In this document: in pieces, positions 9,052 through 42,453 of the stretch
How the letters are laid out: each line of letters opens with the position of its first letter
How positions within the stretch are numbered: position 1 is the stretch's first letter
NCBI GenBank assembly: GCA_949295025.1
Contig: CASFJK010000005.1
Coordinates: forward strand, 13,235-77,234
Origin: an uncultured Pseudomonadota bacterium
GTDB lineage: Bacteria > Pseudomonadota > Alphaproteobacteria > RF32 > CAG-239
Length of the DNA stretch: 64,000 nt
Direction of reading: 5' to 3'
The notes under the pieces: model-generated
Told to the model about the DNA's origin: nothing
The model's database searches: none
Seen by the model: the letters and a program-made list of their open reading frames with translations, nothing else
Position numbers and translations under genes: made by a program

Positions 9052-9720
9052 TTAAATCCATCCCAACTCTAACGCTTTTTGCTGAGCCTTGTCGTTCAAA
9101 ACACTTTTACGATGACAAAGTGTAACCAACTCTTTTGCTTCAGGTAAATCAAACAAAAGCAAATCATTATCTTCCCAGAAAGAATGTTGTGTCAAAATAT
9201 AATATGTTAACATTTTGGCAGGATGAGGCAAAGAAAACAACTTTGCTTCTTCTTCCTTTTCCAATTCATTTCCTATGGCAAAATATTGCATAAAGATGTC
9301 TTCTGCATCCGGCAAATTAAAAAATTCGGCTATAACTTCACGGCTAAAACTAAGCTCTTTTTGAATACATAGCTTTATCACTTCAGAAGCATGAGGCAAA
9401 CTAAACAACTTAACACCATTTACTCTGGAAATAATTCCTTCATTAGAGACATAATGTTTTACAACATCTTCTGCATCGGAAAAATCAAAAATTTCTTTTT
9501 CAAGACGATCATTTAATACACCATTGCGAGAAATAAAAAGCTTAATCACCTCACTTGGATGAGGCAAGGTCAAAAACAAATCTTGCTCATCATAAAAATC
9601 AATCCAACTCAAAATAGCAAGTTTCACAAGCTCTTCCGCATCAGGACGTTCAAAAATCTGCTTCTTTTCTTCAGGTGTCAAACGACGATCTCTGAGAATT
9701 TTGCTATAAATCAAATCCAT
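9052..9720 (-). CDS. Hypothetical tandem-repeat protein (alternating A/B repeats of about 18 aa)
   Basis: A repeats: IFERPDAEELVKLAILS / IFDFSDAEDVVKHYVSN / FFNLPDAEDIFMQYFAIGN / LFDLPEAKELVTLCHRKS. B repeats: LTLPHPSEVIKLFISRNG / LFSLPHASEVIKLCIQKE / LFSLPHPAKMLTYYILTQ. Confidence 0.5.
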   Translation of the reverse strand: MDLIYSKILRDRRLTPEEKKQIFERPDAEELVKLAILSWIDFYDEQDLFLTLPHPSEVIKLFISRNGVLNDRLEKEIFDFSDAEDVVKHYVSNEGIISRVNGVKLFSLPHASEVIKLCIQKELSFSREVIAEFFNLPDAEDIFMQYFAIGNELEKEEEAKLFSLPHPAKMLTYYILTQHSFWEDNDLLLFDLPEAKELVTLCHRKSVLNDKAQQKALELGWI

Positions 9721-9786
9721 AATATAAAAATTTTTTAATTAATAATAAATTATGCGAAAAGATATTTAACACACATTTTTTTTATG

Positions 9787-11598
9787 TCAACTTTCAAACT
9801 GTAAAAAACCTTCCGATTGCAATTGATAAAGATGATGAAACACTCCTTTTTTCTTGAGAAGTTCAGCTTGGCTACCCTGCTCTACGATTTTGCCTTTTTG
9901 CAAGACAACGATTTCATCCATATTTTTGAGCGTGGACAAACGGTGTGCAATGGCAATCACAGTTTTACCTTCCATCAATTTTGCCAAAGATTTTTGAATA
10001 TAAACCTCACTCTCACTATCCAAAGCTGAGGTTGCTTCATCCAAAACCAAAATCGGTGCTTTGCTCAAAATTGCGCGCGCAATGGCAATACGCTGGCGCT
10101 CACCACCGGAGAGCAACACGCCTTTGTCACCGACTTTAGATTGATACCCATCCGGCAAATCTTTAATAAAGACATCACAATATGCTTCTTTAGCTGCTTT
10201 AACTACCTCTTCATCTGTGGCATTGACATTACCGTAACGGATATTTTCCATCAGCGTACGATTAAAAAGCAATGGGTCTTGTGGAATAAAGGCAATGTTT
10301 TTGCGCAAGCTCATTTGCGTCACTTTAGAAATGTCTTTACCATTTATGGTAATTTTGCCTTTTTGCAAATCATAATAACGCGTCAAAAGTTTAACGAGTG
10401 TAGACTTTCCGGAACCCGATTTTCCAACCAAACCGATTTTTTGACCGTTGGCAATCGATAAATTAAAATCATGGAATAACAAAGATTTGTCAGGATAAGC
10501 AAAATCAACATTTTCAAATTTTATTTCCGCTTTACGTAGTTTCAAATTTTTTGCATTTGGGGCATCAACCACTTCATGCGGTGCATAGATAAAATCAACC
10601 CCGCTTTTGACTTGTCCATAATCACGAAATATACCACTAACATTATAACTCAGCATTTTAGTTGACATTATCAAAACCTGTACCGAGGTCAAAATAAATA
10701 CAATATCAGCCACTGAAAGCGTGCTATATTTCCAAGCAAAAAATGTAGCCACATAAAAAGTTAAAGACATTACATCATAAACAAAATTGTTGCGATAAGT
10801 AAGCTTGGCTCGAGTACATTTTTCATCTCGGTCTAAACGCAACCACTTTTTCAAACGTTGGTAAAAATAAAGGCGCTCATATTTTTCATTGGCAAAAGCC
10901 TTGACGGTTGCCGCATTTACCACACCATCCATATACACGCCGCCAAGTTCTGCCTCAGATTCCGTTACATTTTGCATATTACTAAAAATGGTTTTTCTGA
11001 TTTTTGTTGTCAGCCAAGCAAAAAATAAAGTCACAGCCAAAAAGAAAAGAGCCAGATAACAATTCATAAAAGCAATAATCAACAACGTCACTCCAACCGT
11101 ACTCAAATTCATCACCAAAGTAAGTGTGACATTTTTCAAGGCAGTTATCCCTTGAGAAATAGAGCCGACCATTTTTTCAATATTGCCGCTTTTTTCTTCA
11201 TTAAAAAAGCGCAAAGAATGTTTATGCACCTGCATAAACAAATCTTTGTGCATAGTAGCCATAAACTTTGGTTCAAATTTGGCGTCGGAAAAATGAGCTA
11301 AGCAAAGGAACAAGCTTCCCATCATCGTGGTAACACCAAATGCTGCCAAAAGCCATACACCTTTGGCAATCGGCATATTATCGGCATCAAACTCAGCCAC
11401 CAAGCCAACGAGTTGCGCACTAAAATAAGAATTGATACGCGCAGAAGAAAAACTCACTATATAAAGAATAAAAGACAAAACAAAATAGAACTTCACTTTG
11501 CCGAGATATTTACCAATAAGCTTTAAGACTGTCATATGAGTTCCTTTCTCATCTTCCAAGATCGGCTCTATTAAAGCACATTTTAGGGTTTTAAGCAA
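9787..11598 (-). CDS. ABC transporter, fused permease/ATP-binding subunit (MsbA-like exporter)
   Basis: Six predicted N-terminal TM helices. C-terminal NBD with Walker A GKSGSGKST, ABC signature LSGGERQRIAIARAIL and Walker B ILVLDEATSALD. The true start may be the internal MTVLKL about 21 codons downstream. Confidence 0.85.
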   Translation of the reverse strand: MLKTLKCALIEPILEDEKGTHMTVLKLIGKYLGKVKFYFVLSFILYIVSFSSARINSYFSAQLVGLVAEFDADNMPIAKGVWLLAAFGVTTMMGSLFLCLAHFSDAKFEPKFMATMHKDLFMQVHKHSLRFFNEEKSGNIEKMVGSISQGITALKNVTLTLVMNLSTVGVTLLIIAFMNCYLALFFLAVTLFFAWLTTKIRKTIFSNMQNVTESEAELGGVYMDGVVNAATVKAFANEKYERLYFYQRLKKWLRLDRDEKCTRAKLTYRNNFVYDVMSLTFYVATFFAWKYSTLSVADIVFILTSVQVLIMSTKMLSYNVSGIFRDYGQVKSGVDFIYAPHEVVDAPNAKNLKLRKAEIKFENVDFAYPDKSLLFHDFNLSIANGQKIGLVGKSGSGKSTLVKLLTRYYDLQKGKITINGKDISKVTQMSLRKNIAFIPQDPLLFNRTLMENIRYGNVNATDEEVVKAAKEAYCDVFIKDLPDGYQSKVGDKGVLLSGGERQRIAIARAILSKAPILVLDEATSALDSESEVYIQKSLAKLMEGKTVIAIAHRLSTLKNMDEIVVLQKGKIVEQGSQAELLKKKGVFHHLYQLQSEGFLQFES

Positions 11599-28059: not shown

Positions 28060-29916
28060 TTATTTTTTCGGAGCTAAGAAAAGCGCGCGCATGGCGTTAA
28101 GAATAGCAATCACGGCAACGCCCACATCGGCAAACACGGCTGCCCAAATTGAGGCATATCCCAAAGCACCTAAGCCCAAGATAATGAGTTTAACCCCAAT
28201 GGCAAAAACCACGTTTTGTCGAGCAATGGCAAGCGTACCGGAAGATATTTTCATAGCCGTGGCAATTTTAGAAGGCTCATCGGTCATAATCACCACATCT
28301 GCCGCTTCAATTGCCGCATCAGAACCAATGCCGCCCATGGCAATACCGACGTCAGAGCGTGCCAATACCGGCGCATCATTAATACCGTCACCCACATAAA
28401 GGAGTTGTCCGCCTCTTTCTTTGTTCGCTAAAATCTCTTCGAGTTGATTAACTTTATCAACCGGCAAAAGTTCGGCATAAACATTATCAATTCGCAGTTC
28501 TTCGGCAATTTTAAGGGCAATTTCTTTGCGGTCGCCGGTCAACATCACAGTACGGGCTACACCATTTTCTTTCAGGCTTTGCAAAGCATGTACCGCATCT
28601 TCTTTAATCTCATCGGCAATCACCAAATGCCCGATGTATTTACCTTCTTCGGCAACAAAAATCACCGTACCGATAGCATTGAGTTGCGGACATTCAATAT
28701 TGAGATTTTGCATCAACCTAACATTACCAACGGCAATATGCTTATTTTTCAGCTTCAAAGTCATGCCTTGTCCATAAACTTCTTGCAAATCGGCAACTTT
28801 TTTCTCATCAATCTTTTTGCCATATGCTTCTTTGATGGAAAGCGCAATCGGGTGGGTTGAAAAAGCCTCGGCATAAGCTGCAGTTTCCAAAACTTTTTCC
28901 GGATGTCCATTGGTGGCGTGAATATCCATCACCTTAAAGTTACCCTTAGTCAGAGTTCCGGTCTTATCAAAAACCACAATTTCGGCATTAGCCAAAGCCT
29001 CGAGATAGTTACTACCCTTGATTAAAATACCGGCCTTAGATGCGGCGCCCAATCCGCCAAAAAAGCTCAGCGGCACTGAAATCACCAGCGCACAAGGGCA
29101 AGAAATAACCAAGAATGTAATTGCGCGATAAAGCCAATCAGAAAAAGTTTCAGAAGCTATAAACATTGGCGGCAATATAGCCAGCAACACGGCCACAATC
29201 ACCACGGTCGGTGTATAATAACGCGCAAATCGGGTAATAAAGTTTTCCAAATTGGCTTTTTTTGAAGATGCGTTTTCCACCAAATCCAAAATTTTGGCAA
29301 CAGTAGAATTGGCAAATTCTTTACTGACTTTCACGGTCAAAACACCGGTCTGGTTAATGCAACCACTCACCACCTCATCGCCTTTTTCCACATCTCGTGG
29401 TAAAGATTCGCCGGTCAAAGCCGCCGTGTCTAAAGAAGAAAATCCTTCAATAATTTTACCATCCAGCGGAACACGTTCTCCGGGACGAATAACAATCAAA
29501 TCACCGACTTTCACTTCTTCCGGAGAAACTTTAACAATTTCCTCGCCTTTTTGCAAATTAGCATAATCAGGACGAATATCCATCAACTCGGCAATCGATT
29601 TTCGTGATTGATTAACCGCATAGCTTTGGAAAAATTCTCCTACTTGGTAGAATAGCATTACAGCGGCCGCCTCGGCAAAATCTTGCAAAGCAAAAGCACC
29701 GATTGTTGCCAAAGACATCAAGAAATTTTCATCAAAAATCTGCCCGTGAATAATATTTTTTCCGGCACGTTTTAATATCGGCAAACCTACGATTAAAAAG
29801 CTTATGACAAAAACACTTTTTTCATAAATATTGGGCAGAGGAGCCAACATCCCAACCATAAAAAAGATGAGTGCAATCAAAATAAGTTTAAGATTTCTCT
29901 TGAGCTTTTTTGTCAT
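28060..29916 (-). CDS. Heavy-metal-translocating P1B-type ATPase (Cd/Zn/Co/Pb type)
   Basis: SCPCALVISVP (CPC ion-transduction motif), DKTGTLT phosphorylation site, TGD, GDGINDAP hinge. Confidence 0.9.
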   Translation of the reverse strand: MTKKLKRNLKLILIALIFFMVGMLAPLPNIYEKSVFVISFLIVGLPILKRAGKNIIHGQIFDENFLMSLATIGAFALQDFAEAAAVMLFYQVGEFFQSYAVNQSRKSIAELMDIRPDYANLQKGEEIVKVSPEEVKVGDLIVIRPGERVPLDGKIIEGFSSLDTAALTGESLPRDVEKGDEVVSGCINQTGVLTVKVSKEFANSTVAKILDLVENASSKKANLENFITRFARYYTPTVVIVAVLLAILPPMFIASETFSDWLYRAITFLVISCPCALVISVPLSFFGGLGAASKAGILIKGSNYLEALANAEIVVFDKTGTLTKGNFKVMDIHATNGHPEKVLETAAYAEAFSTHPIALSIKEAYGKKIDEKKVADLQEVYGQGMTLKLKNKHIAVGNVRLMQNLNIECPQLNAIGTVIFVAEEGKYIGHLVIADEIKEDAVHALQSLKENGVARTVMLTGDRKEIALKIAEELRIDNVYAELLPVDKVNQLEEILANKERGGQLLYVGDGINDAPVLARSDVGIAMGGIGSDAAIEAADVVIMTDEPSKIATAMKISSGTLAIARQNVVFAIGVKLIILGLGALGYASIWAAVFADVGVAVIAILNAMRALFLAPKK

Positions 29917-29930
29917 AAGTCCTTCTCCTA

Positions 29931-30146
29931 TCAGAAAATGATTTCGCAGTCGGGTTCAATTTTGTTTTTGACTTTTTCCACTTCTTTCAGCACGGAATCA
30001 ACTTTTTCATCTTCCACTTCAAGCACCAATTTTTGTGCCATAAAGTTAACCGATGCTTTAATCACACCCTCAATTTCATTAAAAGCAGTTTCGAGTTTGG
30101 CTGCACAATGCGCACAATCCAAATTCTCTAATTTATAAGTCTTTAA
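29931..30146 (-). CDS. Heavy-metal-associated (HMA) domain metallochaperone
   Basis: MLKTYKLENLDCAHCAAKLE: the M.C..C metal-binding loop of HMA domains. The start is placed at the internal Met, because the longer ORF would overlap the ArsR gene. Confidence 0.65.
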   Translation of the reverse strand, partial: LKTYKLENLDCAHCAAKLETAFNEIEGVIKASVNFMAQKLVLEVEDEKVDSVLKEVEKVKNKIEPDCEIIF

Positions 30147-30229
30147 CATGGCTCTCTCCATTAAACGATTAAACATACGTTTAATTGTATCACAAAAAAC
30201 AATCTTGTCAAGAACAATTAAACAATCAT

Positions 30230-30583
30230 TTAATTGTTTATCGGACACTGAATATCAAAAATATCATCAATGGAGCGGTGTAAGAGTTGCGCTTGAGCCT
30301 CATCAGAGAGTTTATAATACATCTCTTTCCCCTCGCGACGGCTAGACAAGAGCCCTGCTTGTTTGAGCAAACGCAAATGATGAGAAACCGCTGGCGCACT
30401 CATATTGACGGCGCAGGCAATATCATTAACGCATTCCTCGCAATGGCACAAAAGCCACATAATTTTAAGGCGTGTCGGGTCGCTGATGAGTTGGAAAAGT
30501 GCCGAAACTTTTTCAAAATCTTTATTTTCGGGCATTTTTTCAATCATCTTTTCGGCATTTTGATTATGATTATGCAAATTCAA
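30230..30583 (-). CDS. ArsR/SmtB family metalloregulator (CadC-like)
   Basis: LFQLISDPTRLKIMWLLCHCEECVNDIA..SAPAVSHHLRLLKQAGLL: ArsR HTH with a CxC metal site. Heads the HMA/ATPase operon. Confidence 0.85.
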   Translation of the reverse strand: MNLHNHNQNAEKMIEKMPENKDFEKVSALFQLISDPTRLKIMWLLCHCEECVNDIACAVNMSAPAVSHHLRLLKQAGLLSSRREGKEMYYKLSDEAQAQLLHRSIDDIFDIQCPINN

Positions 30584-30604: not shown

Positions 30605-32488
30605 TTATAACGTTAAGAGTCTTAACAAAACGTCAATAACATAAGCAATTCTGCCATCAGGCAAGGACAAAGGCAACAAAGAGGTTTGCAAAAAGAACTT
30701 TTTACCCGAAGTATAATTTTTAATACGCATACCATGCATATTCTTGTCCACATCTATTCCGTTTTGTGGCACAACATAATTAAAGAAAAGCAATAAATCT
30801 TTACCATCTAACTCTGCAGTAACCTTTTTAACCGCCCCCAAATGAACAATCTGATTTTTCCCGCCTTTATCAAAAATCGTATCAAAACCATCATACGGAC
30901 GATATAAATAAACATCATCCCCTTCACCGGCATAAAGAACATCATCGCCGGTCAGAGGAAGAAAGATATTGTCATCAAAATTTCTTCCATACAACGTATC
31001 ATTGCGAGCAGTTCCTTCATAAACCATAGTTTCAATATTTTTCAAATCTATATCATCAATGATATGCCCAATAGATTTTATTTTATCAATCGGATAAAAC
31101 TTAATAAAAGGATTTTGAGGCATAACCCAATTTCTATAAAAACTCCAAAGCATCATTTTGGTTTCAAAAGCACCGTTTTGCAGATAGTAAACTTCAACCA
31201 TTTTCCTAAAAGCACTAATTTTTTTCGAATCAATCTCCCATTTTTTGCTTTTAGAATTATAACGAATACTAAGATTTTCATAGAGCGGACTCAAAACTCC
31301 ATTTTTATCTAAAACATTTTGTAAATAGAAGTAAAAATCATCATAAGCTTTCCATATATAAGGCGAAGCGGCTCTAGTCGGATTAAGAGAAATTTCATTA
31401 CCGCTAATAGTTCCTTGATATGTTCTATTCATAAATTTTTCTAAGAAAGCCAATTTTCTGGCATCCCCTATATAATTCCAGCCCTGTTCAGAAACTCTGC
31501 TCTGCAACGGCACATCTATAACATTTGCCCAAGCATATATAATATCATTAAGTAAAGACAGACGTTTAATGGCTTTTTGTTCGTGCATATAAGAATAAAC
31601 TTTTTGCCCCAGCATGCCGGTTTCATCTTTGAAGATGGCATCTTGCAGAGCCGGTACTTTTCCAACTCCTGAAAGATTGGGAATATGAGTCAATTTCACT
31701 CCAAATTTTTCACGCGGAGCACGTTTTACCATCGGATCTTTTTGCAACCAAACTTCATAAATTTGGGATGCTGTTCCATCCGCAAATTCAACATTAATAT
31801 AATCTCCAATAATATTACCGGAACTATCTTTCTTTTGATGAGGATACACTTTTAAATCTATACTTTTGATATTTTTTAGATTTTCCTTTTGTTTACCAGA
31901 AAGTTTATTAAAATTCCAAAAAGACAATTCCGGTAAAGAAGTCCTCGGTGTATTTATCTGTTTTTTATTTCCAACTAAATGGCGCAAAATATCAAAAGAA
32001 CTCTGTTGCTCTTTCAATGGCATATCTGCAAAATAAGTTCCAATAACATGAGCCCCGTTTTTCAACTTATCCGACGTTTCATTCCATACCAAAATCACAT
32101 CATCTGCACCTAAAATTGGCATTTGCTCGGCAATTTCATCTTGATCAAAATCAAAGAACTTTTTTGGGAAGCACTTCTGCAGAGATGACAAACCGCATAA
32201 TGAAACACCGTCACCCCCAACATCCAAAACCAATATTTTTGTAAACTCATTTTCAAGCACTTCTTTTCCATTAGGCATTTTAATAAAATATCTGCGTGGC
32301 AATTTTGCAATTTTTTGAGATTGTTGACGTATAAAATCTCGTTCTTGAGAAGAGAGTTGTCGTAATGGCGCGCCTATTTTTTCAGGATTTTTAAAACAAG
32401 AGAAATACAAATCATAAATAATATATCCACCCACAATCAAAAAAACCGGAACAACAACGTTTAATAACAACAATAAAAACTTTTTCAT
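30605..32488 (-). CDS. Membrane-anchored hypothetical protein with C-terminal RTX-like calcium-binding repeats
   Basis: N-terminal TM anchor, large domain with no recognisable motif, then TGDDVLYAGEGDDVYLY...DGFDTIFDKGGKNQI. Confidence 0.45.
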   Translation of the reverse strand: MKKFLLLLLNVVVPVFLIVGGYIIYDLYFSCFKNPEKIGAPLRQLSSQERDFIRQQSQKIAKLPRRYFIKMPNGKEVLENEFTKILVLDVGGDGVSLCGLSSLQKCFPKKFFDFDQDEIAEQMPILGADDVILVWNETSDKLKNGAHVIGTYFADMPLKEQQSSFDILRHLVGNKKQINTPRTSLPELSFWNFNKLSGKQKENLKNIKSIDLKVYPHQKKDSSGNIIGDYINVEFADGTASQIYEVWLQKDPMVKRAPREKFGVKLTHIPNLSGVGKVPALQDAIFKDETGMLGQKVYSYMHEQKAIKRLSLLNDIIYAWANVIDVPLQSRVSEQGWNYIGDARKLAFLEKFMNRTYQGTISGNEISLNPTRAASPYIWKAYDDFYFYLQNVLDKNGVLSPLYENLSIRYNSKSKKWEIDSKKISAFRKMVEVYYLQNGAFETKMMLWSFYRNWVMPQNPFIKFYPIDKIKSIGHIIDDIDLKNIETMVYEGTARNDTLYGRNFDDNIFLPLTGDDVLYAGEGDDVYLYRPYDGFDTIFDKGGKNQIVHLGAVKKVTAELDGKDLLLFFNYVVPQNGIDVDKNMHGMRIKNYTSGKKFFLQTSLLPLSLPDGRIAYVIDVLLRLLTL

Positions 32489-32636: not shown

Positions 32637-32712
32637 GCCGACATAGCTCAGTTGGTAGAGCTACTGATTTGTAATCAGTGGGTCCGCGGTTCGAGTCCGT
32701 GTGTCGGCACCA
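32637..32712 (+). tRNA. tRNA-Thr (anticodon UGU)
   Basis: GCCGACATAGCTCAGTTGGTAGAGCTACTGATTTGTAATCAGTGGGTCCGCGGTTCGAGTCCGTGTGTCGGCACCA. Cloverleaf with a 7 bp acceptor stem, anticodon loop tt-TGT-aa, T-arm GGTTCGAGTCC, encoded CCA. Confidence 0.9.
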
Positions 32713-32769
32713 TCATAAAAAAGGCCTCCCATTGCGGAGGCTTTTTTATGATGATAACGCATATAGAGT
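32666..32769 (+). repeat. Direct repeat, left copy (tRNA-Thr 3' half plus terminator plus 21 bp): att-like boundary of the islet
   Basis: 104 bp that recur at 38046-38150 with one substitution and one extra T. Confidence 0.85.
32717..32748 (+). terminator. Rho-independent terminator after tRNA-Thr (GCCTCC...GGAGGC family)
   Basis: aaaaaaGGCCTCCcattgcGGAGGCtttttt. Confidence 0.7.
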
Positions 32770-33051
32770 TCTCGAACCGCGGAGGAAGCGGTTCGACTAA
32801 GAGGAGAAACAGACGGAAGTATGTTGGTGAGGGCATAGCCCGAGCGACGACGAAGCGGCGGAGCTTTAGCGACGTCAATCCTATATCTGCCCCAATTTTT
32901 AATCCATTAAAATTCAAGATTTTTTTATGTTCTTAATTTTCATCTCTTGACTTTTCAATATAAAAATATAATCTATTTTTCAATGAATTATAATTATGTT
33001 TAATCAAGAGGAACCGGTCAAATAAGCCTCTCAAAATATTCCGGTATAATT

Positions 33052-33630
33052 ATGGATGAAAAAACTATAATTTTTATCTTGCTTGGAATTTGTGCCTTTT
33101 TGTTCTGTTTTGTTTTTGTAGTCGCAATACTTCAAGGTAACCAAACAAAACGCGAGTTATCCGGACAAGCCGGCGTTTATAAAGGACCTGCCGGTGAACC
33201 AAGATGGAACGGACAATTACCGGAAAAAGTGGACGATTATGTTTGTCCTCGCTATGTTTATGAAAATCTGGTTGAAAGTACCGATTATTTACCTGAAAAC
33301 GGCAGAATTATCGGTTATCGTATCTCTCCTAGTTTAGTTATTCACAGCCGAGTACAATATTGTGTTAATTCTCCTGTTCTCAAGAGTTATATTCGGCGAT
33401 TGGGCGGAAAGTTATTAACTCCTGACGAAGTGTTAACACTATTTCATAATTGGAAAGATGTTTCAGCTTTACGCGCTAAAGCCGGAGATACAACTTTAGG
33501 CAAATTTCAGTTCTGGTGCAGTTCTAAGGAAGGGTTTCCTGTTTGTTCAAACATCAAATATGGTAACATCATTCTTGAAGATATGGTCGGGTTTACGAAA
33601 TTTAATGCCCCCCTTATCTTAAAAAGGTAA
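33052..33630 (+). CDS. Hypothetical membrane-anchored protein (islet cargo)
   Basis: N-terminal TM helix IIFILLGICAFLFCFVFVVAIL followed by a 160 aa domain with several Cys. Confidence 0.4.
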   Translation: MDEKTIIFILLGICAFLFCFVFVVAILQGNQTKRELSGQAGVYKGPAGEPRWNGQLPEKVDDYVCPRYVYENLVESTDYLPENGRIIGYRISPSLVIHSRVQYCVNSPVLKSYIRRLGGKLLTPDEVLTLFHNWKDVSALRAKAGDTTLGKFQFWCSSKEGFPVCSNIKYGNIILEDMVGFTKFNAPLILKR

Positions 33631-33684
33631 AGTAAAAGCCTCTTGTGCTAAACATTGCTCAAGAGGTTTTTTTTGCGTATTGTA

Positions 33685-34554
33685 TTAACTAAAATAAACT
33701 CCAACAACTGAAACAATGCCTAAGATGAGGGCAAAAGTCTTTCTAAGTGTAAATTTATCCATTTTAAATAACACCGATAATAAAAACACTAAGAAAATTC
33801 TCATTTGAGCAATAATCATAACCACCGTAGGAGCGTCATTTATAAAGCTAAATGTTTCTAAAACATAATACAGGCTTTCTAATATACCGATAACCAAACC
33901 TAAAAACAGTAAACTATTCCACCATTTTTTAGTTTGAGCCTCTTGTTTAGAGCTATTAGAAAAAACATTATAAGCAAAATATGGAAGCGCGAGGATATAA
34001 TAAGACAAATTTATAGCTATTTCATTGGCACCCAAACTATCAGAAGCCTTAATTAAATACGGCGCAGTAACATAAAATAGTACGGAACCGACCACCCAGA
34101 CAAATCCTTGCCGTTCCATTTCCTTAAAAGAAGTACCTTCTTTATTTAAACAATCTTTGCAGAATAAAAAAATGGAATATATGAAGATGACAAACATTAA
34201 AATAAAATATGGTGTAATCTTTATATAGCCTACAAAAGAATCAATAAACAGCGTTAAAAATAAGTTACTGCTTTCTATCAAGCCCACTAATCCGAGGGGT
34301 AAATACTCTAAAGATTTAACAAAACATATATACCCCAACAGTACAAAAACGCCATGTACCAACAAATATGGAACAGAGGCATAGGTAAACATTATCCCAG
34401 TATTTAACCCATACAATAATTGAATTACAAAGGCTATAAATGAAGTATATAAAAGGACTTTGTGGTAATTATACCTATTAACGGCATAATCTAATACAGC
34501 ATCAGAAAATGAGTTAGAAATTGTAGCAAAAACGGCTGTATATCTATAATCCAT
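33685..34554 (-). CDS. Polytopic membrane protein, likely DMT/EamA-like permease (islet cargo)
   Basis: About 10 predicted TM helices and very AT-rich codon usage. Confidence 0.4.
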   Translation of the reverse strand: MDYRYTAVFATISNSFSDAVLDYAVNRYNYHKVLLYTSFIAFVIQLLYGLNTGIMFTYASVPYLLVHGVFVLLGYICFVKSLEYLPLGLVGLIESSNLFLTLFIDSFVGYIKITPYFILMFVIFIYSIFLFCKDCLNKEGTSFKEMERQGFVWVVGSVLFYVTAPYLIKASDSLGANEIAINLSYYILALPYFAYNVFSNSSKQEAQTKKWWNSLLFLGLVIGILESLYYVLETFSFINDAPTVVMIIAQMRIFLVFLLSVLFKMDKFTLRKTFALILGIVSVVGVYFS

Positions 34555-34581
34555 TTCAACCTCTCAACGGCGATAAATTTA

Positions 34582-35037
34582 TTATCGCTTCATCCACTTA
34601 TATCCCCAATCATCTTTCTTAAAGCCGAATTTTTGGTAGATATGAATTGCTGTTGGGTTATCTGAAGAAAGAAGCAATCTTTTAATCTTCTTATTTTCTA
34701 CAAAAGCCATCAAATGAGCCATTAAATTGGTTTGTATTCCTTTAGAGCGGAATTTCTCCAGCGTAAAGACATTACAAACATAGCCATAAACACCATTATC
34801 GCAACATTGCGGCAAGGTTTTAAGAAGTGATAAACCGCAGGTGGCAATAATCGTGTCATCTTGAAATTCTGCAAAAATAAACAAATCTTTGTTTAAGTGT
34901 TCTTCCAAAAATTGCTTGGTTTGGGCAAAAAGTTCGTCATCAGAGCCTTGATAATCCTCTTGCCAATCGTCTTTTTGCTGTAATACCCTTAGATGAGATA
35001 ATTCTTCAATATGCTTATTCTCGGTTTGTATAATCAT
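34582..35037 (-). CDS. GNAT family N-acetyltransferase (islet cargo)
   Basis: VFTLEKFRSKGIQTNLMAHLMAFV (motif A region) and a C-terminal IYQKFGF. Confidence 0.6.
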   Translation of the reverse strand: MIIQTENKHIEELSHLRVLQQKDDWQEDYQGSDDELFAQTKQFLEEHLNKDLFIFAEFQDDTIIATCGLSLLKTLPQCCDNGVYGYVCNVFTLEKFRSKGIQTNLMAHLMAFVENKKIKRLLLSSDNPTAIHIYQKFGFKKDDWGYKWMKR

Positions 35038-35042
35038 AAAAT

Positions 35043-35762
35043 CTAATCCTTTTTATGAAATTTGTAAGTTTGAAAGCCGTTTTCGCAAGGAAAAGCATTG
35101 ATACATATATCGGCTTGCATTGTTTTGGGGGTAAATATACAGGCTCCGACTGTAAAGGATTTTTTTGTATCATGGGAACAGATTGAATAACCATATTTAC
35201 CATATTCGTGAGATGACAACATTTTTTTTATGTCTTCATATTTTTTGATTTTTAGTAATTTTGTTTGTGCCGATAAAAGTCTTAAATGTGAAGAATTTGT
35301 TATATCCTGCCAATTTCCCTGATTAATCAGAAGTTGACTATGATTTGTGCAAGCAAAATGGGCGACATTGGTTAAATCTGCGTAGGCTAGCTGATTGGGC
35401 GTAACTTCTATGTAAAATACATTTTTAGAATTTCCTAATAATTCTATAAATCCCATATCATACCTTTTACTTTCTTTTTGGAAAAATTCTAAAGCTTCAA
35501 AAACAGATTCAAAATTTAATAAAATATCTTTATTGATGTCGTAAGGACGTGGATTTTTTCTTTTTATGTCAGGCTCCATTGTTAGACTGACCGCAAATAG
35601 ACCATATTTATTTAAACCTTCAAAACGACCATTTTCATCTGTTATAAAAATTCCTTTTTCTGAAAAATCAACTTGCTGATTTTTTGGCATTTGTTTCAAC
35701 ATTCTATTTTTTAAATAATGGATAGTTCCTTTTTGGTCTTTCCAAAAGCCTGCAGTACACAA
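35043..35762 (-). CDS. Ntn-hydrolase superfamily protein with N-terminal Cys nucleophile (C45/acyl-CoA:6-APA acyltransferase-like) (islet cargo)
   Basis: Begins MCTAGFW... The Met-Cys-Thr N-terminus is the hallmark of bacterial C45 Ntn hydrolases, where Cys2 becomes the nucleophile after Met removal. Confidence 0.4.
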   Translation of the reverse strand: MCTAGFWKDQKGTIHYLKNRMLKQMPKNQQVDFSEKGIFITDENGRFEGLNKYGLFAVSLTMEPDIKRKNPRPYDINKDILLNFESVFEALEFFQKESKRYDMGFIELLGNSKNVFYIEVTPNQLAYADLTNVAHFACTNHSQLLINQGNWQDITNSSHLRLLSAQTKLLKIKKYEDIKKMLSSHEYGKYGYSICSHDTKKSFTVGACIFTPKTMQADICINAFPCENGFQTYKFHKKD

Positions 35763-35852
35763 CGTATTCTCTCCAGCGACATATTTTATTATTCATATTT
35801 TTAATAAATATTAAAAATATATGTTTAATATCTTCTTTATAAATCTATAACA

Positions 35853-37022
35853 ATGGACATATTAATGATTAAAAATTTAAGAATTTTTCCAATTTTTGAA
35901 ATATTTTACAGATTTACCCCTCATTTTTTAATTGCTCCTTTGTATTATCAAGAGATTTTAGGTTCATATACCTTAGCTATGGCTGTATTTTCTACAACTC
36001 TTATAAGTTGTTCTATTTCTGAAATTCCAATGGGAATCATTTCAGATTTTATTGGCAGAAAAAGAACTATTATTTTTGCCTCATTTTGTAATTTTTTTAG
36101 TTTTCTGTTATTTATTCTTGCTGGAATATTTGAACAATACTCTAATGTTTTGTGCTTTTCTGCTGCTATCGTTTTAGGATTATCTCAGGCATTATATAGC
36201 GGTACACTTGATGCTTTTATTTACGAAAGTATTAAAGCCAGCAATCAACTTGAAGATTATAATAGACTTTACAGCCGCATAAAAGGTCTTGGAGCTATGT
36301 CATCAGCGATTTCTGCTTTATTATCGGGAATTTTAAGTTATTACTATCCCTACATTATTTGTTTTTATCTATCTGGTTTTGCCGCTGTTATGACAATGAT
36401 AATTGGCTTATTTTATTATAATATAGATTATTCTTCTGCATATTTTTCATATAAAAATTTAAAAGAACACCTTAAAAACATTTATCTTTTTTATAAAAAC
36501 AATACAAAACTTCGTTGGATAAGTTTGGCTAAAATTATGGGAGATAATGTTAGTTATCGAATTGATATAATTTATTTTAAGATGTTAATTCCTGAATATT
36601 TATTAGGAACTCCTAGGATGCTGAAGAAATTTTGCGAATGTATCAGTTATATCTATGCTTCATATTTAATTGAAAAATTTAAGCCAATCGGCGTTTTGAT
36701 TATCTCAAATTCATATATGATTGCCATTCGAAGCTTGGCTATTGGATTAAACAACTTCTTATCCCCATTTATAATATCTTTGGTTGATTTATTAGACGGG
36801 ACATCTTCAACATCTTTCTCTAATTTATTACAGCATGAATATAGCGACAAACAACGAGCAACAATGGAATCTATTATAAGTATGGTATCAACAATTTGGA
36901 CATCAATATTGTTGCTATTAATTGGTATTGTAATTGATTATACAGGTGTTCGTTTTGCTTTATTCGTATTAATCATATATAGATTTATTCGTTATTTTAT
37001 TTATTATAAAGTTTTGAGATAA
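35853..37022 (+). CDS. MFS transporter (islet cargo)
   Basis: 12 TM-like segments. GIISDFIGRKRTII resembles MFS motif A. Confidence 0.55.
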   Translation: MDILMIKNLRIFPIFEIFYRFTPHFLIAPLYYQEILGSYTLAMAVFSTTLISCSISEIPMGIISDFIGRKRTIIFASFCNFFSFLLFILAGIFEQYSNVLCFSAAIVLGLSQALYSGTLDAFIYESIKASNQLEDYNRLYSRIKGLGAMSSAISALLSGILSYYYPYIICFYLSGFAAVMTMIIGLFYYNIDYSSAYFSYKNLKEHLKNIYLFYKNNTKLRWISLAKIMGDNVSYRIDIIYFKMLIPEYLLGTPRMLKKFCECISYIYASYLIEKFKPIGVLIISNSYMIAIRSLAIGLNNFLSPFIISLVDLLDGTSSTSFSNLLQHEYSDKQRATMESIISMVSTIWTSILLLLIGIVIDYTGVRFALFVLIIYRFIRYFIYYKVLR

Positions 37023-37071
37023 AAACTACAATTAAACCATATCTTAACTTGTCGGCTGTAATCATTATATT

Positions 37072-37908
37072 ATGGAATGCGAAATGATTAAAATACTTTT
37101 GGTTACAAATGAAACTTTAGGAGAAGGTGAGGATAGTTTCTTGGCTTCTTTGTTAAAAGATGATTTTATCGTTGAACTGTATGATGTTAGCCAAGATATT
37201 CCTTCAGATTGTGCCAACTTTGATATTTTCTTATTCCGAAATGCGTGGCCTGAGCGTATTTATGACAGAAAAATTAAGTGTCTTATAAATATAGCGATAA
37301 AAAATAACATAATCATCTACAATTCTCTCCAGCAAAGGAGCAAATCTTTTTCTCTCAAAAGTTATTTATATTATCTCAACGACAATTTTGATAATGTTAT
37401 ACCAACATATAAAACATTAGCGGAATTTCCAGAAAATAAAGCAGTCTTAATAAAGCCGCAAAATGGCGGTTCTTCTTACGGTGTAAAGATTTTTGCAAAT
37501 AAAAATAAGATACGCCGTAAGTTAAACAATTACATAATCCAAGAGTATATTCCTTTTGCGAAAGAACAAAGTTACTTTTTTATTGATAAAAAGTTTTGTT
37601 ATGCTCTCGAAACAATAGCCTCCGGAATGGATAACAGGTGGGAATTAAAGGAATTCGCCCCAAACAGGAAAATGCTACAGATTGCAAAATCTTTTATGAA
37701 ATGGAATAATATGCCCTATGGAATTGATAGAATCGACTTTGGCGTAACTTCCGAAGGGCTTATGCTTTTAATGGAAATTGAAAGCGACAGAAGCTATTTA
37801 AGCCTTGAGGAATTATCCAAAGATACTTTAGAGATGTTTATAAAAGAACTAAAACAATCCTTGAAAACTGTTTTTTTGCATAGTCAAAAAACTAAAAACC
37901 ACTCATAG
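37072..37908 (+). CDS. ATP-grasp fold ligase (RimK/glutathione-synthetase-like) (islet cargo)
   Basis: AVLIKPQNGGSSYGVKIF (ATP-grasp Lys and Gly-rich loop), IIQEYIPF, and C-terminal GIDRIDFGVTSEG...LMEIES Mg/ATP-binding region, in RimK-like order. Confidence 0.55.
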   Translation: MECEMIKILLVTNETLGEGEDSFLASLLKDDFIVELYDVSQDIPSDCANFDIFLFRNAWPERIYDRKIKCLINIAIKNNIIIYNSLQQRSKSFSLKSYLYYLNDNFDNVIPTYKTLAEFPENKAVLIKPQNGGSSYGVKIFANKNKIRRKLNNYIIQEYIPFAKEQSYFFIDKKFCYALETIASGMDNRWELKEFAPNRKMLQIAKSFMKWNNMPYGIDRIDFGVTSEGLMLLMEIESDRSYLSLEELSKDTLEMFIKELKQSLKTVFLHSQKTKNHS

Positions 37909-38045
37909 CTGATAAATTTTTCCCTGTAACAAGCTGATGGCAGCTTGTTTTAGCGTGGTAGCTCGGTGGTAGCTCGGCAAAAAAATCGCTAAAATTTTAA
38001 GATTAACATATTGATTTATAAAGATAATATTTTACAAGCGCAGTC

Positions 38046-38150
38046 GATTTGTAATCAGTGGGTCCGCGGTTCGAGTCCGTGTGTCGGCACCATCATAAAA
38101 AAGGCCTCCCCTTGCGGAGGCTTTTTTTATGATGATAACGCATATAGAGT
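38046..38150 (+). repeat. Direct repeat, right copy: tRNA-Thr 3' fragment (47 nt, non-functional) plus duplicated terminator
   Basis: gatttgtaatcagtgggtccgcggttcgagtccgtgtgtcggcacca...gcatatagagt. Identical to 32666-32769 except for C for A in the terminator loop and one extra T. Confidence 0.85.
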
Positions 38151-38360
38151 CCTCGCCCTACAGAGAAATATCAATATTTAAACTCATCCCCCATCTTATT
38201 AAAATTTCATTTATAAAAAAATCATCTCCCCAATATCTTGAATATTAATCAAGACATTCTATTGACAACAATCATAAAAAATGGATAAGTAAATTTATTA
38301 TTTTTTGCTGTAAAATATGTTTTATAGCCTTTGGACCAAATTTTATATGGAGAAACTTTT

Positions 38361-39683: not shown

Positions 39684-39719
39684 TAAAAAAAGGTTTGAGT
39701 TTTTCTCAAACCTTTTTTT
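39684..39719. terminator. Rho-independent bidirectional terminator
   Basis: aaaaaaaGGTTTGAGtttttCTCAAACCttttttt. Confidence 0.7.
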
Positions 39720-39734
39720 ATTTGTTCTGGAAGA

Positions 39735-40184
39735 TTAGCTTAATATTTTATCTAACTCTTCCATTTCTTTTTGATGCACAGACTTCACTCTGGCCTCTCT
39801 TTCAGCCTCTTCTTGCTGCATTTTGCGTTTCCACTCGCGCTCGTACTCTTCGGAAATTTCATCACTTGTTTTTCCTCCATACATGCGCAATAGTTTGGCT
39901 ATGGCTGGATTATCTCCCCATACGTCCAATATACGATAATAAAGAGTTTCCGTACCGGTAATCATCCCATTATCGTAGCTGTAGCTTCTTTCTACAGGGA
40001 CGCAAACAAGATTTGGATCAAAGCCCTTATCCAGAAATTTCTTCATGTTTAAGAAATCTCTCTTAGCGATAAATTCAAGAAATCTACGAACCATCTTAGG
40101 ACACTCATATGCTTTCTTTAGCTCTGAGGCATAATTCTTTTTAGCTGAGGCATAAAAAGCCTCATTCAATACTAATGTTTTCAT
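39735..40184 (-). CDS. Hypothetical protein (149 aa, charged C-terminus)
   Basis: ORF with a K/E-rich C-terminal tail. No motif recognised. Confidence 0.4.
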   Translation of the reverse strand: MKTLVLNEAFYASAKKNYASELKKAYECPKMVRRFLEFIAKRDFLNMKKFLDKGFDPNLVCVPVERSYSYDNGMITGTETLYYRILDVWGDNPAIAKLLRMYGGKTSDEISEEYEREWKRKMQQEEAEREARVKSVHQKEMEELDKILS

Positions 40185-40496
40185 AATTTTTATTTTTTTA
40201 GGGAAACATCAAGCTTTTCCCTTAGATTACAATAATAACCTACGACTATTAAATGCTTGAAAAATAGCAATAGGCCGATAATAATTTCTTTGTAACACAT
40301 TTATATCATCTTTTTTGTCTATTGTCTATATATTTTTTTATTGCTCTTTACGATGTTAAAATATAATTACTTTTTTATCCTTTAAAATTTCAAGAAAGGC
40401 TCAAGGCTTAATCGCAAATAAGTTGACAAAACTTTCAAAACAATATATTTTTGTCTATAGAGCAAATATAATTATAACTAAAAAAAATATACAATT

Positions 40497-41069
40497 ATGA
40501 AAATTTTTAAAAGTTTTTTTGCAGCAAAAAAACGCCGTGCTGAAATGAAAGAATATCAAGCACAGATTGATGTGTTAGAAGAAAAAGTTTCTGATTTTAT
40601 TTATGACAAGAGTGGTAAATACCACCCTATTCCTCGCATAGATTTGACTGAAAGATTGCCTGAGCTCATCTTGAGTAAAGATGATGCTGTCAATTTTTTT
40701 GCAAAGTTTCTGGGAGAAAAAATAAACCCTTATGAGGTTTCTTTGGTCAATCTCACAGAAGCATATGGTAATCATGCCAGCAATCTGTGTTGGGTTTACA
40801 GAAGCTTTTTGGTAAACTTAACAAAAGGCGAATATGGTTATTACTCGGAAAGAATGTTTTCGAAACTTGTCATCATTGATAAAGGTTTCAACATTCCGGT
40901 TGCGGCATACACCGACCTGAGAGTCCTCGTTCGCGGTGAAGAAATTTTCCCAATTGACATTATTTATGATGAATGGGGAGAAGTAGAGCACATTGAAAAG
41001 ACATTAAAAGTCTATTCAGCCCAAACGCCTATGAGCAAGGTGCTGGAAGACATAAAAAAACTTTCATAA
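40497..41069 (+). CDS. Hypothetical protein (190 aa)
   Basis: ORF followed by a GCCTCC...GGAGGC-family terminator at 41068-41099. Confidence 0.4.
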   Translation: MKIFKSFFAAKKRRAEMKEYQAQIDVLEEKVSDFIYDKSGKYHPIPRIDLTERLPELILSKDDAVNFFAKFLGEKINPYEVSLVNLTEAYGNHASNLCWVYRSFLVNLTKGEYGYYSERMFSKLVIIDKGFNIPVAAYTDLRVLVRGEEIFPIDIIYDEWGEVEHIEKTLKVYSAQTPMSKVLEDIKKLS

Positions 41070-41413
41070 AAAAAGCCTCCAATCGCGGAGGCTTTTTTTG
41101 ATTACAAACTATTCCTAGGGCAAGATTGGACGAGAACTTTCTTCCAGTTTTTTAGTTTTTTTGTTAAAAACCACCCCTTCTGTATGAAAAAAATTTTCCG
41201 GATGTTTTTTAGCTTGCCACAAATCACAAAATTCATACCAAGCAAAAATCAACTTTTTGATACACCATACAGACAAAACCCCGCAGATAGTCGTCAATAA
41301 AATTTTACTCAATAATACCATAAGCTTAAATTTTATAATTATAACAATACGTAATTATCATAATAAAAATGTTTTACGAAATCAATATAACATAATCTTT
41401 TAATTTAAACACT

Positions 41414-41442
41414 TGACAATTTTAATATATTACATATATAAT
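41414..41442 (+). promoter_or_regulatory. Sigma70-like promoter (TTGACA-17-TATAAT) for the 41477 ORF
   Basis: ttgaca at 41414-41419, 17 nt spacer, tataat at 41437-41442, about 35 nt upstream of the ATG. The surrounding spacer is extremely AT-rich. Confidence 0.45.
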
Positions 41443-41476
41443 ACATATATATTATTAAATATATTGGAGACTTGCC

Positions 41477-42052
41477 ATGAAAAAAATTGAAAATGTCAAA
41501 GAGTTTGTGGAGAAGATAGACAGCGCCAAAAAAGTCAATCCCAAAGACCTGTCTTCTGACCAAGATTTAACCATCGCCATCATGAACCTTATCAGCATTG
41601 AAGAACACCTTGTTTTCTCTGGCGCCAAAACCGGAAAAAATTCTTTTTACGATTTGGTACAAAACATTCGTGAAATGCGCAAAACCTTGATGCAAAAAGT
41701 TATTCCGGCTTATGAAGGCGAAGTCTGGTGCATATCCAAACATTTGCTGGCTTCTTCCATGCGTTTGATGGAGGTTGGCACCAAGCAACAATCTTTAGGT
41801 CACAAAGAAGAAGCCTACAAACTTTTCAACCAAGCCTATGAGCTTTATTGTCTGTTCTGGGGCTTGAATATGAATATGTTAAACGTCGCAGATGTAAAAT
41901 GGATTGAAGATAAAACCGAAGACATGAAAAAACTTTCAGAAAAAATTGATGCCAACATCCCTAGCACACCTGAGGTTTCAGAAGAAAAAACCGGTACGTT
42001 GTCCAAGATGAAAGCTTTTGCCAGAAAAGCGGTTGACTGCTGCATAGAATAA
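41477..42052 (+). CDS. Hypothetical protein (191 aa)
   Basis: ORF with the RBS GGAGAC upstream. No motif recognised. Confidence 0.4.
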   Translation: MKKIENVKEFVEKIDSAKKVNPKDLSSDQDLTIAIMNLISIEEHLVFSGAKTGKNSFYDLVQNIREMRKTLMQKVIPAYEGEVWCISKHLLASSMRLMEVGTKQQSLGHKEEAYKLFNQAYELYCLFWGLNMNMLNVADVKWIEDKTEDMKKLSEKIDANIPSTPEVSEEKTGTLSKMKAFARKAVDCCIE

Positions 42053-42063
42053 GGAGAAAACAA

Positions 42064-42453
42064 ATGAACAAAATCATCTTTGCTTTTGCATTAGGGCTGT
42101 TTGTCCTCACCGGTTGCGATAATCAAACCCAAACGGAAAGCACGGCTCAAACCGCAAGTGAAAAATCCGCTTTTTCAGAAAATAAAATCTATTTTTTCTA
42201 TTCCAACTATTGCCCGCACTGCCACGCAGCATTGAAATATATCAAAGCCAAGCACCCCAATTTAGAGTTATCCATGGTCAATGTTGAAAATGCCGGTGGT
42301 TATAAACTCCTTGTGCAAGCGGTAAAAGAATATAAAATCAACGGCAGTTCTGTCGGCACTCCGCTTCTGCTCATGGGCAAAAATTATCTGATGGGCTGGG
42401 CTCCGGAATATGAAACCCAATTTGAAAATTATGTTCAGCCTTTTGTAAAATAA
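42064..42453 (+). CDS. Thioredoxin-fold lipoprotein (CxxC)
   Basis: Lipobox LFVLTGC. FFYSNYCPHCHAALKYIK is a thioredoxin/glutaredoxin-like CPHC active site. Confidence 0.5.
   Translation: MNKIIFAFALGLFVLTGCDNQTQTESTAQTASEKSAFSENKIYFFYSNYCPHCHAALKYIKAKHPNLELSMVNVENAGGYKLLVQAVKEYKINGSSVGTPLLLMGKNYLMGWAPEYETQFENYVQPFVK

Follow-up and report, generated by a model that had tools for sequence, protein, structure and literature searches.

Among the described systems closest to the locus reported here, the tabtoxin (TabS/Ttr/TblR) and bacilysin (BacD/BacE) systems produce dipeptide antimetabolites with an ATP-grasp ligase, together with a GNAT or an MFS protein for self-protection. Ngg is a bifunctional protein composed of a GNAT and an ATP-grasp domain, and AsnO is an asparagine-synthetase-type enzyme with an N-terminal Cys nucleophile. 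The Ngg/AsnO pathway synthesises N-acetylglutaminylglutamine amide (NAGGN) in Sinorhizobium and in Pseudomonas (PA3459-PA3461) (PMC8070244). The locus analysed here is a 5.4-kb islet, bounded by direct repeats, in a 64-kb stretch of contig CASFJK010000005.1 from an uncultured alphaproteobacterium; this whole stretch is called the window, and all coordinates are positions in it. The islet carries six open reading frames (ORFs), encoding a 192-aa protein of no recognised family, an EamA/DMT permease, a GNAT N-acetyltransferase, a short C45-family Ntn protein (C45), an MFS transporter and an ATP-grasp enzyme related to DcsG, which makes the antibiotic D-cycloserine and is the sole studied relative of its family. 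The islet is tentatively read as an accessory patchwork, in which the GNAT and the DcsG-like ATP-grasp enzyme would form a core acting on one amino-acid-like small molecule and the remaining genes would be optional additions.

The DcsG-like ATP-grasp enzyme and its family

The ATP-grasp protein probably starts at 37084 and not at 37072, as its homologs all begin with MIKILL, and an exact-sequence look-up of the ORF from 37072 returned no match. In Pfam the protein showed only a sub-threshold match to ATP-grasp_3 (E=3e-4, residues 110-161), with further sub-threshold matches to Ddl_C and TTL. As the ATP-grasp_3 match is sub-threshold and covers about 50 residues, the assignment was checked by structure. 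The AlphaFold2 model, built with eight homologs (mean predicted local distance difference test score, pLDDT, 84), retrieved ATP-grasp enzymes throughout in a Foldseek search, with DcsG in first place (E=9e-14), and the three-domain fold of the superfamily was recognised. The ATP- and Mg-binding residues, sought as two Lys, a hinge Glu/Gln and a metal site of Asp plus Glu-x-Asn/Glu, were likewise present; K92, K124, E161, R216, D218 and E231 are invariant among 46 family members, and Q153 and E233 are at least 90% conserved. By analogy with Ddl and GshB the invariant residues are predicted to bind ATP and Mg, and on that ground the proteins of the family would appear to be catalytically competent.

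Word sharing among 5.8 billion proteins placed the relatives of the enzyme in seven 90%-identity clusters, all from metagenomes or metagenome-assembled genomes (MAGs) labelled uncultured Alphaproteobacteria or proteobacterium. A family profile run against 1.84 billion representative proteins retrieved 252 members at E<=1e-3, including 44 at E<=1e-30. Bacteria and some archaea carry the family, which falls into about 250 clusters at 50% identity; most members are stand-alone proteins of about 270 aa, and no Pfam or NCBIfam model covers the family. Among solved proteins the profile matched only DcsG significantly (6jil_A, E=1.3e-12), with profile positions 33-260 lying on chain residues 34-296, while a literature search on DcsG relatives gave nothing relevant. 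The enzyme had been described at the outset as of the RimK/glutathione-synthetase type, which is borne out at the level of fold in Foldseek and at that level only; membership in RimK or GshB was rejected, as no RimK or glutathione-synthetase model of Pfam or NCBIfam matched at E<=0.1, and the protein is not a housekeeping RimK.

These results bear on the reading that the ATP-grasp enzyme is a RimK/LysX/TTL-type ligase that would add an amino acid to a protein carboxylate, with the GNAT acetylating the same protein target. Some partners of distant family members, described below, would suit such a role, and the reading is nonetheless highly improbable: the only significant link at the sequence level leads to DcsG, a small-molecule enzyme, neither a RimK nor a LysX model was matched in Pfam or NCBIfam, and no LysW- or S6-like carrier gene lies nearby.

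Recurrence of GNAT genes beside the ATP-grasp family

In every locus of the clade to which the window belongs, the GNAT gene adjoins the ATP-grasp gene, with or without the C45 and MFS genes. Outside this clade, 21 metagenomic loci with distant family members were surveyed, 19 of them with informative flanks, and 70 neighbouring ORFs were classified with Pfam. GNAT was the commonest Pfam family among these neighbours, lying adjacent to the ATP-grasp gene in four of the 19 loci, namely L027 (divergent, 17-bp gap), L042 (2-bp gap), L030 (same operon) and L037. GNATs make up roughly 0.5-1% of bacterial genes by our own estimate, so that fewer than one would be expected by chance among 70 ORFs. 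A 265-aa GNAT is also encoded 230 bp downstream of P0007, a 59%-identical ATP-grasp protein, and P0118 is a fusion of a GNAT with an ATP-grasp domain. C45, MFS and EamA proteins were not found among the 70 neighbouring ORFs. The pattern suggests that an uncharacterised family of DcsG-like ATP-grasp enzymes partners with GNATs, and it demonstrates no new mechanism.

Several observations weigh against a fixed GNAT/ATP-grasp core. The GNATs beside distant members are not orthologs of the window GNAT (best BLASTP E=3e-4) or of each other, a phmmer search with the window GNAT against the neighbouring ORFs gave no match, and the pairing may for this reason be a loose theme and not a fixed partnership. 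The genes of the 60%-identical ATP-grasp proteins P0005 and P0006 are flanked by DUF805 on one side and PNP_UDP_1/LexA on the other, a chromosomal arrangement that is conserved, and no GNAT, C45 or MFS gene adjoins them. In Bacillus, Paraclostridium, Brucella pituitosa and Deinococcus the family also occurs on plasmids, where its members are annotated as 'hypothetical protein' and are solitary among insertion sequence elements and unrelated genes. One Clostridia relative of the GNAT is encoded next to sites of prophage insertion and a gene for an rRNA/tRNA methyltransferase, and neither an ATP-grasp gene nor the other cassette genes lie nearby. Other fusions and neighbours in the family comprise methyltransferases, SET domains, CN-hydrolase and SDR proteins, of which the methyltransferase, SET and CN-hydrolase partners would also fit a role in protein modification.

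Further arrangements were noted within the ATP-grasp family. In P0015 a methyltransferase/spermine-synthase-like domain is fused to the ATP-grasp domain, P0141 is an SDR-containing protein of 811 aa, and P0060 has a weakly M29-peptidase-like N-terminus; such domain fusions may hint at the class of substrate. In the sister lineage (L007-L014) a DUF805 gene on the same strand precedes the 60%-identical ATP-grasp gene by 39-113 nt (L007, about 8750-10900), and the DUF805 membrane protein is unusually long (340-344 aa), which suggests a different conserved partner there. In L041 (1307-2236 and 2214-3110) a gene for a carbon-nitrogen hydrolase, an amidase of the nitrilase superfamily, overlaps the start of the ATP-grasp gene, a further instance, unrelated to the first, in which a member of the family has an amidase as its partner.

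Mosaic history of the shared block

The DNA shared with related genomes extends from 33667 to 38092, with 98% identity to L001. Outside a single clade of uncultured Alphaproteobacteria, whose copies are 93-99% identical, the gene set was not found. Three flanking contexts were observed for this block. The first is the tRNA-Thr islet with EamA (window, L001 and L005); in the second (L018) the block lies between unknown genes and CoA-transferase genes; and in the third (L019) a nucleotidase/nucleoside-hydrolase gene stands on one side and GT2, GNAT and topoisomerase genes on the other. The GNAT, C45, MFS and ATP-grasp genes are kept together in all three (window and L001, L018, L019), and as the copies are near-identical, the three contexts represent one origin and not independent co-occurrence. 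EamA is restricted to the tRNA-Thr version of the block, being 99.7-100% identical in L001, L002, L004-L006 and L017 (dN/dS 0-0.03) and missing from L018 and L019. When plasmids were searched with the DNA of the 4.4-kb block, the tRNA fragment alone was matched.

Within the block, the segment that holds most of the C45 gene and the MFS gene (Table 1) is present in some genomes and absent from others. L002, L004, L006 and L017 lack it; in these four loci a decayed C45 tail of 33 nt is left, with 12 bp of filler, and this residual tail identifies them as deletion alleles. In L055-L059, which share the L019-type context, the GNAT and ATP-grasp genes are parted by an unrelated 90-bp spacer; in L056 this spacer takes the place of the 2039 bp of C45-MFS in L019, with the left flank 98.8% and the right flank 94.8% identical. 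With the spacer at the position of C45-MFS and flanks that match L019, these loci are empty-site alleles.

Differential divergence was also observed along the block. Synonymous divergence (dS) between the window and L019 was 0.30 for GNAT and 0.46 for ATP-grasp, against 0.037 for C45 and 0.029 for MFS, the MFS protein being 99.2-99.5% identical in L001, L018 and L019, and the density of mismatches steps sharply at about 35000 and about 37000, the borders of the C45-MFS module. Purifying selection acts on each of the five shared genes, omega (dN/dS) ranging from 0.0 to 0.38, with a value of 0.11 for GNAT. From the dS contrast, the mismatch steps and the deletion and empty-site alleles, C45-MFS is judged to be a younger segment (about ten-fold by dS) that was recently exchanged between lineages and is dispensable.

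This history weakens the reading of the initial annotation, in which the five or six genes together would be a single cassette devoted to the ligation, acylation or deacylation, and export of an amide-linked metabolite or toxin so far undescribed; the GNAT and/or the C45 protein would serve for self-protection or maturation, and MFS and EamA as exporters. The three enzymes all make or break amide or acyl bonds, two transporters are present, the four genes from GNAT to ATP-grasp stay together in three flanking contexts with operon-like spacing, and the set resembles the tabtoxin and bacilysin clusters. Against this, C45 and MFS are absent from many near-identical loci and have a separate, younger history, only one of the three contexts includes EamA, the 192-aa protein is confined to the window, homologs of 50-63% identity are never co-localised, and no precursor-supply or regulatory genes accompany the set. 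The same gene set was not found in independent lineages, C45-MFS and EamA being variably present, and the contexts that do hold the four genes trace back to a single origin. One dedicated cassette is thus an unlikely explanation. What holds of it is the recurring GNAT/ATP-grasp link and a plausible chemical theme, whereas C45-MFS was inherited separately, EamA belongs to one context and the 192-aa protein is not shared. Of the refuting conditions named in the initial annotation none applies in full, although the complete cassette fails the one on co-localisation in other genomes; the compact pathway overstates the linkage of the genes.

The same polymorphism and mosaic divergence can be taken to favour functionally unrelated cargo that recombination would have collected at a hot spot, tRNA-Thr, and that would serve mostly drug or xenobiotic tolerance through an acetyltransferase, efflux pumps and an amidase. 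Distant homologs of every gene stand alone, such as the C45 homologs P0009, P0010, P0011 and P0014 (51-63% identity), which are solitary among housekeeping genes; L017 carries, at the same site, tandem att copies with chloramphenicol-acetyltransferase-like, ankyrin-like and DUF3800-like genes; and the GNAT and MFS proteins have sub-threshold NCBIfam similarities to resistance proteins, AAC(6'), Sat4 and ArsN1 for the former and the efflux pumps Tet(40) and QepA, weakly, for the latter. These resistance matches are, however, all far under their cutoffs, unrelated lineages also place a GNAT beside this ATP-grasp family, a fusion of the two exists, and C45-MFS is always placed exactly between GNAT and ATP-grasp, in predicted operons with them. 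Unrelated cargo is, on this evidence, somewhat unlikely.

Gene content and setting of the islet

The six ORFs were all recovered where the initial annotation had placed them, and the features of the islet are collected in Table 1.

Table 1. Features of the tRNA-Thr islet and its borders in the 64-kb window
Feature	Position	Strand	Size	Remarks
tRNA-Thr (TGT)	32637..32712	+		Predicted with ARAGORN; its 3' 47 nt start the left direct repeat copy
Left direct repeat, attL-like	32666..32787			3' half of the tRNA, terminator hairpin and ~40 nt
Protein of no recognised family	33052..33630	+	192 aa	Single hydrophobic segment, residues 6-24 (N-terminal helix)
EamA/DMT permease	33685..34554	-	289 aa	Pfam EamA, E=4e-9; same strand as the GNAT gene and downstream of it
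GNAT N-acetyltransferase	34582..35037	-	151 aa	Pfam Acetyltransf_1, E=4e-13, 50.2 bits (cutoff 20.7)
Short C45-family Ntn hydrolase/acyltransferase	35043..35762	-	239 aa	Ends upstream of the GNAT start
Present/absent segment	35076..37018		1943 bp	C45 gene for the most part, MFS gene in full; GC 0.27-0.31
MFS transporter	35853..37022	+	389 aa	Pfam MFS_1, E=4.5e-18; upstream of the ATP-grasp gene
DcsG-like ATP-grasp enzyme	37084..37908	+	274 aa	Size from the probable start; ORF opens at 37072
Right direct repeat, attR-like	38046..38168			End of the islet

The proposed islet is a genuine tRNA-linked insertion, given the direct repeats that include the tRNA-Thr 3' end and the low GC content. Positions 32666-32747 and 38046-38127 share 82 nt at 99% identity, and the repeat reaches about 120 nt when one indel is allowed (a 71-nt extension); the 3' 47 nt of the tRNA also terminate the shared block in L001 and L003. 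The GC content dips to 0.28 at 35-37 kb, compared with about 0.38 elsewhere. Pfam detected no integrase or recombinase domain in any of the six ORFs that the repeats enclose. For an att site this repeat is unusually long. The related MAG locus L017 (10963-11100, 13516-13902 and 13989-14612) has tandem att-like copies, which include a duplicated 3' end of the ATP-grasp gene; a chloramphenicol-acetyltransferase-like gene with an HHVVCDGFH motif is found between and after the copies, together with genes for a DUF3800-like protein and an ankyrin-like secreted protein. The tRNA-Thr site thus has the look of a hot spot at which miscellaneous cargo accumulates.

The EamA/DMT, GNAT and MFS assignments were upheld by Pfam matches above the curated cutoffs. 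No NCBIfam equivalog model matched the GNAT at its cutoff, and its nearest relatives outside the clade are GNATs of Clostridia MAGs with 50-56% identity (P0195, L060-L065), which together with the low GC suggests a cross-phylum acquisition within a shared habitat. The MFS gene is divergent from the C45 gene, with a 90-bp spacer between them. Spacings of 5 nt (C45-GNAT), 27 nt (GNAT-EamA) and 61 nt (MFS-ATP-grasp) are tight and support co-transcription after the insertion. The 192-aa protein is membrane-anchored, as initially described, by its single N-terminal helix; no Pfam, NCBIfam or PADLOC family was found for it, and it had no tblastn match in any related locus, the shared DNA beginning only downstream of its gene.

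The C45 protein matches Pfam AAT (PF03417; E=1.5e-12, 48.2 bits, cutoff 23.2). Its start is a TTG codon with a GGAGAG Shine-Dalgarno sequence six nucleotides upstream, and with this start the catalytic Cys is retained in the MCTAGFW motif, which is kept in six of the seven homologs, the seventh being a shorter gene call; Cys2 is the predicted nucleophile. The structural model (pLDDT 86) has the alpha-beta-beta-alpha Ntn fold, with isopenicillin N acyltransferase (IAT; 2x1d/2x1e) as the top fold match (TM score 0.74-0.78) and with bile-salt hydrolases and penicillin V acylases ranking next, and the expected N-terminal-Cys Ntn protein of the C45 type is thereby supported. A profile of the C45 family gave nothing significant against PDB sequences, the IAT match coming from the fold search. 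Only Met precedes the Cys, so the protein lacks the form of an autoproteolytic proenzyme, and the NCBIfam C45_proenzyme model scored 52.8 against a cutoff of 85, over model positions 143-312 of 313; as there is no pro-segment, the Cys would become exposed simply by removal of Met. Close homologs amount to just a handful of metagenomic clusters.

No product, precursor-supply gene, regulator or toxin-immunity signature was found at the locus, and none of the six proteins had a PADLOC match at E<=0.01. The toxin-immunity module that had been suggested as an alternative is left without a signature here, and a phage or defence origin was rejected. A scan for promoters and terminators was uninformative in this AT-rich DNA (33 sites against 29.7 expected), the sole terminators obtained being the hairpins inside the att repeats. 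Past the right repeat, a UDP-glucose dehydrogenase (Ugd) gene begins at 38331 (Ugd domains in Pfam), followed at 39700-42100 by small ORFs without an obvious family and with a GC of 0.32-0.34, which may be accessory DNA. On the other side, directly upstream of tRNA-Thr, a gene on the minus strand (30605-32488) encodes a protein of 627 aa that begins with a membrane helix at the N-terminus and has RTX-type calcium-binding repeats in its C-terminal region (NCBIfam RTX_toxin, E=7e-7, far under the cutoff). An apparent metal-resistance trio at 28060-30583, also on the minus strand, comprises a P-type ATPase (618 aa), a small CopZ-like metal-binding protein and an ArsR-family regulator, judged from sequence motifs alone (CPC motif, CxxC motif).

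Proposed roles of the islet genes

In the tentatively preferred patchwork, the divergently transcribed GNAT and DcsG-like ATP-grasp genes would form the stable, older core, and their products would share one amino-acid-like small-molecule substrate. The ATP-grasp enzyme would turn a carboxylate into an activated acyl-phosphate and then form a C-N bond, by ligation or by a DcsG-type cyclisation, and the GNAT would N-acylate the amine of the substrate or of the product. Either a biosynthetic or a detoxifying role would fit the pair, the common substrate and its chemistry being what we infer for it.

The younger C45-MFS module would then have replaced an original 90-bp spacer, precisely in the divergent promoter region of the GNAT and ATP-grasp genes, leaving two predicted operons, C45-GNAT-(EamA) and MFS-ATP-grasp. 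The C45 protein, a cytoplasmic amidase or acyltransferase in this proposal, and the MFS transporter would most plausibly remove or exchange an N-acyl group and transport the same class of compound, as an optional addition. EamA would be a further, context-specific transporter, and the 192-aa protein a context-specific extra.

A more specific version of the patchwork, speculative and quite improbable, has the GNAT and ATP-grasp pair making an undescribed cyclised or N-acylated amino-acid antimetabolite through cycloserine-like chemistry, with C45-MFS as a horizontally exchanged plug-in that would activate, deacylate or export it; the carriers, uncultured Alphaproteobacteria, would probably be host-associated. 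If true, this version would give a function to a family of about 250 clusters outside the present Pfam and NCBIfam models, and if the GNAT/ATP-grasp pairing is functional at all, it offers an entry point to this sizeable group. Near-isogenic alleles with and without C45-MFS co-exist in metagenomes and constitute a natural experiment, so that the contribution of C45-MFS could be readable from comparative metabolomics or fitness data.

Comparison with known systems

DcsG, the D-cycloserine synthetase of Streptomyces lavendulae (PDB 6jil), is matched significantly by the family profile over almost the full length, with only 17-18% identity to the window enzyme. The arginase, cysteine-synthase-like, racemase and Ddl-type resistance genes of the DcsG cluster have no equivalents among the ORFs of the window (Pfam and ORF list). 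A dcs-type cycloserine cluster was therefore rejected, and O-ureido-D-serine, which DcsG cyclises within the dcs cluster, is very unlikely as the substrate.

IAT (peptidase family C45; PDB 2x1c/2x1d/2x1e) shares with the window C45 protein the Pfam AAT domain, the place as its top structural match and a Cys nucleophile at the start of the catalytic chain. The two differ in that the window protein is only 15-16% identical, has no alpha-subunit or pro-peptide and would be matured by Met removal instead of autoproteolysis.

The NAGGN operon itself was rejected for the islet, since no NCBIfam model of that operon matched at E<=0.1. The GNAT and ATP-grasp of the islet are separate proteins, in contrast to Ngg, and its Ntn protein is a 239-aa C45 protein and not an asparagine-synthetase-type amidotransferase. 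The logic of Ngg/AsnO is nevertheless similar, as a GNAT and a peptide-bond-forming activity on amino acids stand beside an N-terminal-Cys enzyme, and the P0118 fusion has the domain order of Ngg, GNAT followed by ATP-grasp. The tabtoxin and bacilysin clusters, finally, draw on the same enzyme classes as the islet, namely an ATP-grasp ligase, a GNAT and an MFS exporter.

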